DNA from: Candidatus Methanoperedenaceae archaeon
GTDB taxonomy: Archaea > Halobacteriota > Methanosarcinia > Methanosarcinales > Methanoperedenaceae
NCBI GenBank assembly: GCA_963753595.1
Contig: CAVWCX010000009.1
Coordinates: forward strand, 1-50,409
Reading direction: 5' to 3'
Length of the DNA stretch: 50,409 bases
The translations under genes and the position numbers were made by a program. Below, one piece after another: positions 22,750 to 27,009 of this stretch (position 1 is its first letter; each line of letters opens with the position of its first letter). A model generated the notes under the pieces. That model searched no databases. It saw nothing but the letters and a program-made list of their open reading frames with translations, and was not told where the DNA came from.

Positions 22750-23676
22750 ATGGAGCTTAATAAACCAATTATTCCCGCAAGAATAACAGAAAACATGTCT
22801 GTTGATGAGCTTGTGAATTCGTTTTCCGGCTGTGCTTTCGGAGCAGGCCGCATTTATGAAGCTGTTGACATATACCGCGAAATGATACATGACAGGGATT
22901 GCACAAAATTCTTCGGCCTGGCAGGGGCGATGGTACCTGCGGGGATGAGGCATATTGTTAGCGATATGATAAGGAACGGGGAAATCGATATTCTTGTAAG
23001 CACAGGCGCCAACCTTGTCCATGACATGATCGAGTCCCTGGGACTTCATCATTACAAAGGAACTGACATAACAGATGATATCCAGTTAAAACACGAATCG
23101 GTCAACCGTATATATGATGTATTCCTGCCTGAACATCATTTCACGGATCTTGAAACGAAAATGCAATCAATTTTTAAAGAGGTCCCTGAGAAGCTTTCGA
23201 TCACCGAACTTCTATCGCACATCGGAGCAAGACTCGATGACAAAAACTCGATATTAAAAAGCGCATATGATATGGGTGTGCCTGTTTATTGCCCTGCCAT
23301 CCAGGATTCTATCATCGGATTGCAGGCATGGCTGTATAAGCAGACACGTCCTCTCAATGTGGATGTCTTTGCCGATATGAGGGGATTGATCGACAGGTGC
23401 TATGAGGCAAAACGCGCCGGGGTTGTGATAATAGGCGGCGGTGTACCCAAGAATTTCATTTTACAATCAATGCTTGTTACTCCGCGTTCTTTTGATTATG
23501 CGATACAGCTCACCATGGACAGGCCTGAGACCGGCGGACTTTCCGGCGCAACGCTTGACGAAGCGCGCTCATGGGGTAAGATCGGGGAAAATGCAAGGTC
23601 AGTGACAGTGTATTCTGATGCGACAATCACGCTTCCCTTGATCGTTGCAGCGGCAAAAAGTGGGAAATCAAAATAA
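22750..23676 (+). CDS. dys: Deoxyhypusine synthase
   Basis: STGANLVHD, GGGVPKNF and GGLSGATLDEARSWGK (catalytic Lys present). The true start is 22750; the ORF-track extension comes from the duplicate. Confidence 0.92.
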   Translation: MELNKPIIPARITENMSVDELVNSFSGCAFGAGRIYEAVDIYREMIHDRDCTKFFGLAGAMVPAGMRHIVSDMIRNGEIDILVSTGANLVHDMIESLGLHHYKGTDITDDIQLKHESVNRIYDVFLPEHHFTDLETKMQSIFKEVPEKLSITELLSHIGARLDDKNSILKSAYDMGVPVYCPAIQDSIIGLQAWLYKQTRPLNVDVFADMRGLIDRCYEAKRAGVVIIGGGVPKNFILQSMLVTPRSFDYAIQLTMDRPETGGLSGATLDEARSWGKIGENARSVTVYSDATITLPLIVAAAKSGKSK

Positions 23677-23684
23677 GATCAAAT

Positions 23685-24233
23685 TCAGATAATCTTATTC
23701 TCTCCGATCAGTTTCTGGGTCGCTATCCAGAAGCATATTACAGTAAATGGATATGTTATGAACCCACCCACGCCAAGAGCTGCCCCCATACTATTGATCA
23801 ATAGCAGGATAACGCCGAGTATTATTGAGAATTCGAAATTATCTCTTCCGATCCTGTAGCTTTTTTTGAGTGAGTCTATAGCCCCAAGGTTCTCCCCGAT
23901 CGCGATCGGGATGGCATACTGGAAAAGGGCTATTAGTATCAGTCCCGGGATAATGAGAAGAATTAATCCGGCTACTATTGCCAGGGCGCCAACAATGACC
24001 ATCACCCAGCTTACGGCGAAATAATCAAAACCCTTGAAAACATCTTTTATTTCCACACTTTCCCCCCGGATGATCTTCCTTCCCATTATGTAGAGGCCAA
24101 AAAGCAGTGGAGGCGCCGTGATTATTAAGATCGAACCTATTGCTGCGACCACTGCGGCAACAATAAATATAGCGAATTGTTTCTTATAAATATCAAAACC
24201 TTCACTTAATATATCTTCAACCTTAAAATTCAA
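23685..24233 (-). CDS. Integral membrane protein (DUF975-like)
   Basis: [10 protein letters not shown] and AIDSLKKS motifs; TTG start with GGAG upstream. Confidence 0.7.
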
Positions 24234-24307
24234 AGGATCAACTCCAGATTAATATTATCCCTGACAAAATATATAGTTTATCCTTATTATATAATAAATT
24301 AAAAAGC

Positions 24308-24348
24308 TGTAACAATAGAAAAATTGTAATAATGGAAAACTATATAAG
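24308..24348 (+). promoter_or_regulatory. Promoter of the glnA leader: 17-bp direct repeat with BRE/TATA
   Basis: TGTAACAATAGAAAAAT followed by TGTAATAATGGAAAACT, running into TATATAAG. Confidence 0.55.
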
Positions 24349-24371
24349 TATACAAACGGTAGCCTATAGTC

Positions 24372-24478
24372 GGTCACACATATCCTTCATTTGAGTTATT
24401 CCTCAAGTTGGGTAAAAACACTGTAAACGTTGATTCGATATAAGAATCTGAAAACCAGATGAGGGATATGCAGGGACC
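24372..24478 (+). ncRNA. Candidate structured leader RNA or sRNA upstream of glnA
   Basis: 15-bp stem 24379-24393/24456-24470 with two G-U pairs, closed by GGTC/GACC, with internal hairpins. Confidence 0.6.
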
Positions 24479-24501
24479 AAAAAACCAAAGGAGAAAAGAA
24501 A

Positions 24502-24588
24502 ATGGCAAAACCAATAACGCATAAGTTTCCGGCGTCGAGTATCATAAAAAGGCAAAATTGGCAAAGCAGGACAACTAAAAAGGATTAA
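24502..24588 (+). CDS. Candidate 28-aa small protein/uORF MAKPITHKFPASSIIKRQNWQSRTTKKD
   Basis: AAAGGAG RBS 8 nt before the ATG; lies between the structured leader and glnA. Confidence 0.5.
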   Translation: MAKPITHKFPASSIIKRQNWQSRTTKKD

Positions 24589-24671
24589 ATCACAACACAG
24601 AATGATTTATAATAATAGATTGTAATAAAGAGAAAAAGATAAAGAAGGATAAGAAAAGACAAGTGATGAAT

Positions 24672-25997
24672 ATGGGAATTACAAATGAAGATATATTAAG
24701 ATCCATAGAGGAAAACAAGGTCAGGTTTTTAAGACTCCAATTTGTTGATATTGGCGGAATGGTCAAGAATGTGGGCATTCCTGTATCACAGGCAGAAAAA
24801 GCCCTTACATCAGGAATAGCATTTGACGGTTCATCTATCGAGGGATTTGTCAGGATCGAAGAATCTGACATGATCCTGAAACCTGATAATAACACTTATA
24901 TGATTCTTCCATGGGACGTTAGCGGGGGAAAGGTCGCAAGGATAATATGTGATGTTTACAGGCCGGACGGAAAGCCCTTTGAAGGCGACCCCCGCTATGT
25001 CTTAAAGAGAGCCATTGCAGCTGCTGCCAAAAAAGGTTTTGTAATGAACACAGGGCCTGAGCTTGAATTCTTTTTCTTCAAGAGAAAAGACGGACAGGCA
25101 ACAGTTATCCCCCATGACTTTGGTGGCTATTTTGATTTTCCCCCGATAGACCAGGCCGAAAATATCCGGCAGGATATTGTAGTAGCCCTTGAGAACATGG
25201 GATTCAACATCGAAGCTTCCCATCACGAAGTTTCTATCGGGCAGCATGAGATAGATTTCAAATACAGCGATGCATTAAAGACAGCGGATAATGTCATTAC
25301 CTTCAAGTTCGTAACCAAGACGATCGCGCAGAAAAATGATTTGCATGCGTCTTTTATGCCAAAACCTGTCTTTGGAATAAATGGTTCAGGTATGCATACA
25401 AATATTTCCCTCTTTAAGAATGGAAAAAATGCATTCTATGATGAATCAGACAATATGCAGGTCAGCGATACTTTAAGATATTTCATTGGCGGTCTGAAAA
25501 AACACGTCAAATCCTTCACTGCAGTCACAAATCCTATAGTGAACAGTTATAAGAGGATCGTCCCGGGTTATGAGGCGCCAGTATATATTGCATGGTCAGG
25601 GGCCAACCGCTCATCCATGATACGAATACCGGCAGCAAGAGGAATGAGCACACGCGTTGAACTAAGAAGTCCTGACCCGTCCTGCAACCCATATCTATCA
25701 TTTGCAGTAATACTGATGGCTGGACTTGATGGTATTGATAATAAGATCGACCCGGGTGAGCCGACAACACTTAACCTGTTCCATCTTAATGATGAAGAAC
25801 GAATGAAAAACGGGATCGAATCACTCCCCGGAAGTCTTAAGGAAGCGCTGGATAACCTGGAAACCGACAGCATCATAAAAGATGCACTCGGAGAACATGT
25901 CTACCAGGATTTCATGAGACTTGGAAGGGCAGAATGGGATGCATACAGGATAAGCGTACATGGCTGGGAAATTGAGCGCTACCTGAATATTATATAA
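24672..25997 (+). CDS. glnA: Glutamine synthetase type I
   Basis: FDGSSIEGF, GPELEFF, HHEV...GQHEI, MPKP...NGSGMH, PGYEAP and ELRSPDP motifs. The start could be 24663, 24666 or 24672. Confidence 0.97.
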   Translation: MGITNEDILRSIEENKVRFLRLQFVDIGGMVKNVGIPVSQAEKALTSGIAFDGSSIEGFVRIEESDMILKPDNNTYMILPWDVSGGKVARIICDVYRPDGKPFEGDPRYVLKRAIAAAAKKGFVMNTGPELEFFFFKRKDGQATVIPHDFGGYFDFPPIDQAENIRQDIVVALENMGFNIEASHHEVSIGQHEIDFKYSDALKTADNVITFKFVTKTIAQKNDLHASFMPKPVFGINGSGMHTNISLFKNGKNAFYDESDNMQVSDTLRYFIGGLKKHVKSFTAVTNPIVNSYKRIVPGYEAPVYIAWSGANRSSMIRIPAARGMSTRVELRSPDPSCNPYLSFAVILMAGLDGIDNKIDPGEPTTLNLFHLNDEERMKNGIESLPGSLKEALDNLETDSIIKDALGEHVYQDFMRLGRAEWDAYRISVHGWEIERYLNII

Positions 25998-26019: not shown

Positions 26020-27009
26020 ATGAACACAACAACTATAGACTCAATGGTTCAAAGAAAACTCATAGAGATACTGCGGATACTACATGAGAACCAGGATCCT
26101 ATAGGGGCACGGCTAATTGCCGACAGGATGAATGACCGCGGATACCCCATAGGAGAAAGGGGTGTCCGTTATCACCTTCGCATCCTTGATGAGCGCGGTC
26201 TCACCAAGCGCCAGGGCTATGACGGAAGGACCATCACCGAGCGCGGGACAAAGGAACTTGAAAATGCACTTGTCGGGGACAGGATGGGTTTTATCATAAC
26301 AAGAATTGAGAAACTCATTTACGATACTACTTTCGATCTTAAGACCGGGCAGGGAAATGTGATCATCAATACATCGATAATCGATAAAAAAGATATTGAT
26401 GAAACACTTGAGATCATGCAGCATGTGATAAAAGAAGGTTATTGTTTCAGTCCTTTTGTAAAAATAATGGAGGAAGGGAGTCCCAATTATGATATCAATA
26501 TCCCTGAAGGCAAAATTGGAATTGCCACCATGTGCAGCATAACGATCGACGGGATTTTGCTAAAAAATGGTATTCCTGTAACCCCTAAATATGGCGGATT
26601 GCTGGATGTGAATAACAGGAAGCCAACAGGTTTTGAGGATATCATTGTTTATAATGGCACATCTATTGACCCTATGAAAATCTTTATCTCAAAGAAAATG
26701 ACACATGTGCTTGATGCGGTAGATACGGGTTCGGGGAGTCTTCTTGCAAACCTTCGTGAGATCCCGATGTCATCTGTTCTGGAGGCTCAAAAAATTTTGA
26801 AATCTGCAATGAGCATGGGGATAGCGGATATTACACAGATCGGGGAACCCGGGATGTCGGTGCTCAAAGCGCCTGTTGATTCGGGAAAAGTCGGGGTCGT
26901 AGTATATGCGGGGACAAATATCATGGCAGCCGTTGAGGAAAGCGGGATCAATGTGGCAACATTCCCGATATCAACGATTATGGATTTCAAGGAATTGAAA
27001 GCGCTTTGA
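26020..27009 (+). CDS. nrpRI: Nitrogen regulator NrpRI (wHTH plus one NRD domain)
   Basis: IGERGVRYHLRILDERGLT wHTH; TMCSITIDGILLKNGIP and YNGTSIDP NRD motifs; directly follows glnA. Confidence 0.85.
   Translation: MNTTTIDSMVQRKLIEILRILHENQDPIGARLIADRMNDRGYPIGERGVRYHLRILDERGLTKRQGYDGRTITERGTKELENALVGDRMGFIITRIEKLIYDTTFDLKTGQGNVIINTSIIDKKDIDETLEIMQHVIKEGYCFSPFVKIMEEGSPNYDINIPEGKIGIATMCSITIDGILLKNGIPVTPKYGGLLDVNNRKPTGFEDIIVYNGTSIDPMKIFISKKMTHVLDAVDTGSGSLLANLREIPMSSVLEAQKILKSAMSMGIADITQIGEPGMSVLKAPVDSGKVGVVVYAGTNIMAAVEESGINVATFPISTIMDFKELKAL

Follow-up and report, generated by a model that had tools for sequence, protein, structure and literature searches.

The DNA analyzed was a stretch of 50,409 nucleotides (nt) from a Candidatus Methanoperedenaceae archaeon (contig CAVWCX010000009.1, forward strand), referred to below as the window. 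The element in question is a small open reading frame (sORF) of 28 codons lying between a structured leader and glnA, a glutamine synthetase gene. Comparison with related loci indicates that the sORF is very probably the 5′ remnant of a glutamine synthetase paralog, designated P, that has been lost. Taking origin and role jointly, the preferred account is a gene relic kept as a leader-controlled, sequence-independent upstream open reading frame (uORF), which is considered reasonably likely; the uORF role by itself is close to an even call. The sORF is real and conserved yet ordinary as a protein, namely a gene stump, with its interest residing in the evidence for selection on translation alone and in the leader RNA.

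The small open reading frame and its relation to gene P

The following features define the sORF.

24487..24493, + strand: Shine-Dalgarno (SD) sequence AAAGGAG of the sORF; in relatives, the SD of the glutamine synthetase gene P
24502..24588, + strand: the sORF, very probably what is left at the 5′ end of a deleted type I glutamine synthetase paralog; its codon 29 is a nonsense codon specific to the lineage
24589..24612, + strand: former last 8 codons of the stump, ATC ACA ACA CAG AAT GAT TTA TAA (ITTQNDL and stop), behind the new stop, as aligned with 36-codon relatives

The sORF (ATG at 24502, 28 codons plus TAA) is situated between a membrane-protein gene and glnA, directly 3′ of the long leader helix, the 3′ strand of which finishes near 24478. 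AAAGGAG at 24487-24493 is followed by 8 nt (AAAAGAAA) and the ATG, and the sequence across the start region reads CCAAAGGAGAAAAGAAAATGGCA. Between the last base of the stop (24588) and the glnA ATG (24672) there are 83 nt. The encoded peptide, MAKPITHKFPASSIIKRQNWQSRTTKKD, is basic (5 K, 2 R, 1 H, 1 D), and two of its codons are CAA (Q18 and Q21). The first-pass annotation had described a basic 28-amino-acid (aa) ORF with AAAGGAG-N8-ATG, just 3′ of a stem and about 80 nt before glnA, and this description was borne out. Its claim of a ribosome-binding site (RBS) better than that of glnA was also upheld in milder form. The 3′ end of this genome's 16S rRNA reads ...GGAUCACCUCCU, in which CCUCCU is complementary to the sORF SD; pairing with 16S extends over 5 nt with 3 G-C pairs for the sORF (AGGAG) and 5 nt with 2 G-C pairs for glnA (GUGAU), making the sORF RBS somewhat stronger by our own count. 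The arrangement AGGAG-N5-10-ATG is by itself within chance in the window (14 found, 10.3 +/- 3.4 expected; 16 of 100 shuffles reach 14). The sORF is placed above chance because it is conserved in relatives, not because of SD-ATG spacing alone.

At loci L014, L019, L024 and L022, and at further loci, the same promoter-like box, leader, SD and ATG open gene P, which encodes 482-486 aa (486 typical) with the N-terminus MATPTPEKLLEF... / MATPTPEKLLEFIKEKNVKWVDLQF. P is a type I enzyme (TIGR00653, 573 bits) and is 45-53% identical to the glutamine synthetase encoded by the window glnA (designated W). Leader, P and W were found in tandem on one contig in 4 genomes, and 2 more probable cases are cut by contig ends. 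The order after the P stop at tandem loci is a G+C hairpin with a T-run, a variable spacer, and then the box that precedes W. At L051-L056, a conserved terminator-like hairpin (TTCCAGC...GCTGGAA) followed by a T-run stands just past the P stop, between both glutamine synthetase genes.

The sORF DNA was aligned to the first ~25 codons of P, giving z scores of 3.5-21 against shuffles at 11 of 12 loci (window 7.3; L013 21); at the remaining locus, L020, alignment to the P 5′ codons was weak (z = 1.1). Identity to P over the first 18 residues reached 17 in L013 and 18 in L042. In the window, IIKRQNWQ aligns with FIKEKNVKWV of P, QNWQ being a decayed KNVKW. The conserved 'C-terminus' of the 36-37-codon relatives (TQNDL and stop) has a different source, as its last part (NDL and stop, AAT GAT TTA TAA) is the glnA box read as codons. 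At the site where its nearest relatives have GAT TTA or GAT TTT, the window has GAT TAA, which cuts 36 codons to 28; the old frame runs on to the old stop at 24610-24612, inside the glnA box. The window genome assembly (92% complete) contains no P anywhere and only one glnA. Many genomes of the genus carry one to three further P-like paralogs (frames of about 486-513 aa) away from the leader.

Read together, these alignments suggest the following history. An ancestral unit of promoter-like box, leader, SD and ATG would have opened P, and P would then have stood in tandem upstream of W. In the window lineage, nearly all of P and its terminator were lost, probably by deletion; at least one further lineage took the route of partial duplication of the leader and the P 5′ end. 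What remained, roughly the opening 25-38 codons of P, was fused just before the W box, the frame running into the TATA-like TTTATAA and stopping there; in the window, a later T-to-A change would have produced the TAA at codon 29. A small ORF with a perfect RBS and seeming terminal conservation may in this way arise without a functional peptide, its N-end coming from a lost gene and its C-end being a promoter box.

The leader tree has low resolution, with P-type and stump-type loci interleaved, and does not fix the number of independent deletions. L118 and L124 lie on one contig, ~8 kb apart and on the same strand; the one has a leader before an intact P and the other a much diverged leader before a 33-codon stump and glnA. 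Two leader copies are present on this contig and partial duplication, not simple deletion, is therefore indicated there. The history of the stump accordingly appears to comprise more than one event, and not deletions only. Microhomology (ATCCCG, shared by P codons ~37-38 and the box flank) might underlie recurrent deletion; it was seen in only some loci.

Start signals, open frame and peptide sequence among relatives

Conservation of RBS, start and frame in relatives had been put forward as a check on the first-pass annotation. In the window clade, GGAG was kept in 20 of 20 sequences and ATG in 19 of 20, with the frame kept open; the ORF body accumulated 1.3 changes per column. Gains of stop codons were counted in each reading frame. 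The window clade showed 0 in frame vs 7 and 4 in the other frames, and the second clade 0 vs 3 and 3, amounting to 0 in frame vs 10 and 7 out of frame for both clades (158 substitutions). Simulation with the observed substitution spectrum and branch counts gave a mean of 5.8 expected gains (P(0) = 0.005); by frames, 0/17 corresponds to P = 0.001. Three loci were left out of this test: L010 (stop at codon 11, internally deleted leader), L075 (ORF cleanly deleted) and L025 (internal frameshifts, not alignable by column). Insertions and deletions were compared in the same way. Three of 4 distinct gap runs in the sORF were multiples of three vs 2 of 25 in the adjacent leader (Fisher p = 0.010), the fourth sORF run being a truncating 4-nt deletion. 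The open frame is thus apparently kept while the peptide drifts, for which these counts are moderate evidence and not proof.

Peptide constraint was assessed from parsimony substitutions. Codons 2-28 in the window clade (17 sequences) carry 106 substitutions, distributed 36/39/31 by codon position, with 20 synonymous vs 86 non-synonymous; random change would be 20% synonymous. The second clade (6 sequences) carries 52 substitutions (16/17/19 by codon position; synonymous to non-synonymous 12:40). As a positive control, the first 28 codons of intact P (15 sequences) gave 8/2/36 and 34:12; the same method finds constraint in P and is therefore able to detect constraint where present. In pairwise comparisons of 9 genomes, the pooled ratio of non-synonymous to synonymous differences (pN/pS) was 0.81 for the sORF, and W had a non-synonymous divergence (dN) of 0.047 and a synonymous divergence (dS) of 1.13. 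Mean divergence was 0.27 for the sORF, 0.16 for the leader and 0.22 for the spacer. The dN/dS check that had been suggested for relatives thus turned out against coding constraint: the sORF body behaves like constrained non-coding DNA and, judged by its substitution pattern, the stump peptide is without amino-acid constraint.

A relic with no present function would account for part of this record. On that explanation, the SD, the ATG and the first codons persist only as part of a leader element still under constraint, and the frame is open by chance of inheritance. A dN/dS of about 1 is what it predicts; the deletion product is open by construction, the P frame meeting TAA in the box; many truncated or deleted versions exist, the 28-codon form of the window included; and RNA contig depth over the region is low (below). 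It is at odds with the lack of in-frame stop gains and with sORF indels that are few and mostly multiples of three, where 23 of 25 leader indels are not. L025 stays open over 36 codons despite a 3-nt deletion and three 1-nt insertions, and loss of the ORF tends to accompany damage to the leader (L010, L015, L029, L064 and L065). A relic with no present function is regarded as somewhat unlikely. The window ORF shares with remnants of tandem-paralog deletion a 5′ fragment with intact promoter, untranslated region (UTR) and start, fused to downstream intergenic DNA; unlike ordinary pseudogene debris, the window stump type is retained across many species with its start signals and with stop avoidance.

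The same substitution counts bear on the possibility that the region is untranslated and conserved as RNA or DNA; it might, for instance, extend a regulatory RNA at its 3′ end or be an upstream promoter element of glnA. Substitutions are flat over codon positions, and divergence is well under the synonymous rate of the neighbor genes. Positions 24546-24566 within the sORF (AAAGGCAAAATTGGCAAAGC) are almost invariant in the window clade, including third codon positions, with flanking codons varying freely; no pairing partner of this stretch was found. Frame-specific stop avoidance and indels in multiples of three would not be expected of such a region. Between the sORF and glnA, the RNA shows no structure beyond that of shuffles (minimum free energy (MFE) z = -0.35 to +2.3, 8 loci), and in the tandem loci the sequence before the box is unrelated, contrary to a role as promoter element. 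An untranslated conserved element is held to be decidedly unlikely.

The first-pass annotation had offered, as one of two options, a microprotein that binds GlnA, with the Methanosarcina mazei protein sP26 in mind. In such a case the peptide would bind or modulate GlnA like sP26, perhaps mimicking the N-terminus of a glutamine synthetase. The sORF does adjoin glnA, derives from the N-terminal helix region of a glutamine synthetase and has a strong SD, and 3 of 9 stump peptides were present in protein collections on exact look-up, labelled 'hypothetical protein' only. The proposal was not sustained. Amino-acid constraint is absent where the P control shows it, length varies from 6 to 43 codons with frames, stops and C-termini that differ by lineage, several lineages have the ORF truncated or deleted, and the 'conserved' NDL and stop is the promoter box read as codons. 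A GlnA-binding microprotein is thus very improbable.

Comparison with sP26 itself leads the same way. The passages that describe sP26 (bioRxiv 10.1101/2020.05.06.080432) present a 23-aa protein from a leaderless ~70-nt RNA with a GTG start and a reported GlnA1 interaction, its gene placed between the OMP decarboxylase gene and the ACS operon and conserved at both the amino-acid and the nucleotide level. Binding of sP26 to GlnA1 was, in the passage of a later report that treats it (eLife PMC11957540), not reproduced by cryo-electron microscopy. The two have in common a small ORF, a methane-cycling archaeon of the Methanosarcinales and a proposed tie to glutamine synthetase. The window ORF differs in every contextual feature that those passages describe: it encodes 28 aa (36 in close relatives), has an SD-led ATG behind a structured leader of >100 nt, lies directly upstream of glnA and lacks amino-acid constraint.

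A leader peptide, with attention drawn to the QNWQ run, had likewise been suggested; in its classical form this would be an attenuation peptide sensing Gln-tRNA through the codons of QNWQ. The CAA codons Q18 and Q21 do occur in a uORF upstream of a glutamine synthetase gene. Outside one clade the Q codons are not conserved, with other stumps having 0-1 Gln codons there, and QNWQ descends from KNVKW of P. There is no terminator or antiterminator structure after the sORF, and 24588-24672 contains no T-run longer than 3; nor was any RNA structure found that links the sORF to the glnA SD. A Gln attenuator is less credible still than the microprotein. What stands of the leader-peptide idea is its loose sense of a uORF, with SD and ATG kept and stops and frameshifts avoided; sensing of Gln through an unconserved QNWQ, with no accompanying structure, does not.

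Leader RNA and the proposed read-through and uORF role

Upstream of the sORF, the conserved unit comprises three features.

24335..24348, + strand: distal promoter-like element GAAAACTATATAAG, BRE/TATA-like (TFB recognition element and TATA box), marking the 5′ edge of conservation
24354..24375, + strand: near-invariant 22 nt AAACGGTAGCCTATAGTCGGTC, between the TATA-like box and the first helix
24372..24478, + strand: structured leader RNA with an outer GGUC/GACC helix, a long helix (CAUAUCCUUCAUUUG with CAGAUGAGGGAUAUG) and two hairpins

The GAAAACTATATAAG element was kept in all aligned loci, and the DNA upstream of it is unrelated between genomes. It is read as a putative promoter element on the basis of the archaeal BRE/TATA consensus. 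The 22-mer AAACGGTAGCCTATAGTCGGTC, the core of which is single-copy in the genome at ≤3 mismatches, may be operator or initiator DNA, or the 5′ end of the leader RNA. The leader motif, written as an IUPAC pattern, was present in 31 genome records (labelled Ca. Methanoperedens, Methanoperedenaceae, Methanobacteriota or 'uncultured archaeon') and 22 metagenome contigs. Over the whole genus, leader matches were obtained in 35 of 49 genomes at E ≤ 1e-5, and the intergenic region was matched in 29 of 36 same-genus genomes drawn; these BLAST counts are underestimates, as some diverged and even typical leaders came to light only when the sequence ahead of glnA was read directly.

MFE folds of 15 loci agree in the outer GGUC/GACC helix, the long helix and the two hairpins. 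For covariation, the window MFE structure was scored on an alignment of 24 leaders: 81% of cells were paired, both sides had changed in 12 of 34 pairs (reached by 4 of 500 shuffles), and the covariation score was reached by 0 of 500 shuffles. RNAalifold applied to the 24 leaders returned only 10 pairs at -2 kcal/mol, the alignment being poor. GGAG was invariant in 24 of 24 leaders of P and stump type. Immediately 3′ of the structured part, an A-rich stretch carries the SD, whose unpaired probability ranged from 0.13 to 0.84, with no consistent sequestration. Pairing of CGGUAGCC, in the invariant 5′ segment, with the start codon and codons 2-4 (AUGGCA..ACC), which MFE folds show in most of 15 loci, was rejected as a candidate: pair counts gave 92% pairing without covariation, and shuffles did equally well.

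No Rfam family was detected over the leader or the sORF (window 23500-25500, E ≤ 10; 10 related loci, E ≤ 1), the sole matches being two weak ones to miRNA models elsewhere in L013. A limited literature search on Methanoperedens glutamine synthetase returned no description of leader or sORF. The leader unit (24335-24478; also L051, L052, L053, L054 and others) is put forward as a candidate new, Methanoperedens-specific cis-regulatory RNA for nitrogen assimilation. As a lead it is the more valuable one, being structured, covarying, without an Rfam family, and placed before glutamine synthetase genes of anaerobic methane oxidisers. The cyanobacterial glutamine riboswitch (glnA RNA and Downstream-peptide motifs) stands upstream of the gene for a small glutamine synthetase inactivating factor, and its peptide is a conserved inhibitor. 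The likeness is that of a structured leader RNA right before a short ORF, tied to control of glutamine synthetase; the differences are that no covariance model matches here and that the window peptide is unconstrained.

Seven RNA runs were screened. Each contained 4-5% of the sampled words and thus represents relatives, not the window strain; contigs were placed at 80% likeness. Two runs from one study each gave a contig that covers leader and sORF up to 24665-24675 at a depth of 2.9 and 4.2, and a separate glnA contig that begins at 24657-24665 at a depth of 30.2 and 70.2, contigs of this kind showing no starts, ends, strand or single transcripts and their depths being unable to rank gene parts. 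A run of another study gave a single contig (X5, depth 18.6) from 24385 through glnA. High-depth RNA contigs of relatives start 27-35 nt downstream of the glnA box. The pattern fits, weakly, a strong proximal promoter together with read-through from the leader. Read-through would also be in keeping with the unstructured RNA and the absence of any T-run longer than 3 between the sORF and glnA, and with the box-less L063 and L111 form described below. RNA contigs of relatives were also seen to start at the position homologous to 24385 in 3 of 4 runs from 2 studies. This position could be a transcript 5′ end (~36 nt past the TATA-like box) or a break in the assembly graph at the end of the conserved segment.

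Under the preferred reading of a relic kept as a uORF, we infer translation of the sORF, its co-transcription with glnA and a protective mechanism. With the P terminator gone, transcripts from the leader promoter would continue into glnA. The start site would still be used, and ribosomes entering at the leader-controlled SD and ATG would cover ~90-110 nt before the W box. Their transit could protect or license the long-leader glnA transcript, for instance against termination or decay of untranslated RNA; the termination factor FttA/aCPSF1 and 5′-3′ decay are threats that translation might guard against. The peptide itself would be functionless and the ORF kept open as a translated spacer, and the old leader would gain a hold on the remaining glutamine synthetase gene. 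A bolder version, in which the leader is a new Methanoperedens-specific ligand- or protein-sensing cis-RNA and the stump ORF was recruited as its transducer, with regulated translation deciding the survival of the long transcript, is regarded as doubtful; if true, it would be an archaeal translation-coupled control of read-through born from gene decay.

Sequence-independent uORFs offer the closest parallel in kind, namely a short SD-led ORF in the long leader of a regulated gene, with the start and the integrity of the ORF kept and the peptide not. The window ORF differs from them in being the very probable stump of a lost paralog, with its stop 60-85 nt before the main start and within the promoter-like box of the main gene. 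In M. mazei, the relevant part of a ribosome profiling study (PMC11456600) assigns ~10% of unannotated sORFs to 5′ UTRs as potential uORFs. If the avoidance of stops and frameshifts is real, the stump would be a natural multi-species uORF selected only for being translated, and a route by which a regulatory leader passes from a lost gene to its neighbor.

Several observations weigh against this account. The sORF divergence is ~0.1-0.45 of the glnA/nrpR synonymous rate at all codon positions, hinting at constraint at the nucleotide level that a uORF model leaves unexplained. A distance of 60-85 nt separates the sORF stop from the glnA ATG in most lineages, which is too great for simple coupling of termination and reinitiation. 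The leader/sORF contigs have ~1/10 of the depth of the glnA contigs (2.9 vs 30.2; 4.2 vs 70.2), and carry-over of DNA is possible. The stop-gain test omits L010 and L075; with L010 counted, P(≤1) rises to 0.018 by simulation and 0.007 by frames. L025 is omitted too, on account of its internal frameshifts, though it is open over 36 codons. Shared ancestry of the sequences also has to be reckoned with, as does the roughness of parsimony on a tree drawn from this one short region. Some lineages can dispense with the ORF: 5 genomes have only 6-13 codons, 3 genomes and 2 of 22 metagenome contigs have it deleted, and shortening to 28 codons occurred twice. Finally, the L118/L124 contig, with leader-P plus leader-stump-W, has a history other than one simple deletion.

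Downstream genes and forms of the stump

Downstream of the sORF, the following features were assigned.

24600..24630, + strand: glnA promoter-like box GAATGATTTATAATAATAGATTGTAATAAAG, the first conserved element past the hairpin and T-run of P in tandem loci
24663..24667, + strand: glnA Shine-Dalgarno GTGAT, 4 nt before the ATG (AGTGAT in alignments), complementary to 16S ...GAUCAC...
24672..25997, + strand: glnA (window type, W), 441-aa type I glutamine synthetase (Pfam Gln-synt_C 459 bits, Gln-synt_N 107 bits; TIGR00653 581 bits)
26020..27009, + strand: nrpR, nitrogen repressor gene (Pfam NRD1_2 312 bits, HTH_12 98 bits)

The box consensus is CCCGAATGATTTAT(T)AA...ATAGTAAT(T)AAAG, followed ~20 nt on by AGTGAT and then the W ATG, and the box is unique in the genome at ≤3 mismatches. 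As both the box and the 22-mer core are single-copy, the idea that they are regulon-wide operators was rejected. It contains two TATA-like halves (ATTTATAA ... TAATAAAG) in imperfect inverted orientation. Window-type glnA genes lacking an immediately preceding leader also have this box upstream. Because the same box follows the sORF and precedes these leaderless W genes, it is read as W's own promoter-like region, with the sORF holding the place of P.

The nrpR gene was syntenic with glnA in 9 of 9 window-clade genomes checked. A module of leader RNA, peptide, GlnA and NrpRI had been envisaged by the first-pass annotation; the conserved leader, the start site and the arrangement of glnA and nrpR agree with it, and a functional peptide does not.

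Across the genus (49 genomes), the locus takes the following forms by our tally.

Stump ORF of 28-43 codons before W: 24 of 49 genomes, one of the 24 also having a leader-P copy
Stump cut to 6-13 codons: 5 of 49 genomes
Stump deleted: 3 of 49 genomes
Leader-P: 13 of 49 genomes
W with box only: 1 of 49 genomes
No W found: 3 of 49 genomes

Among the 22 leader-bearing metagenome contigs, 8 were of P type, 11 had stumps of 28-41 codons, 2 had the ORF deleted and 1 was cut before the SD. Spacing from the ATG to the box falls into classes of 98/101, 80, 73-79, 123 and 33 nt, and the stumps are not all in one frame with respect to the box. A length of 28 codons was reached twice independently, by the new TAA in the window and by a 4-nt deletion in L079/L080. 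At L063 and L111, a 13-codon ORF follows the leader and ends in a TGA that overlaps the glnA SD, 5 nt before the glnA ATG, with no box. This 13-codon form appears to be a translationally coupled version, and its arrangement indicates that the leader can drive W directly.

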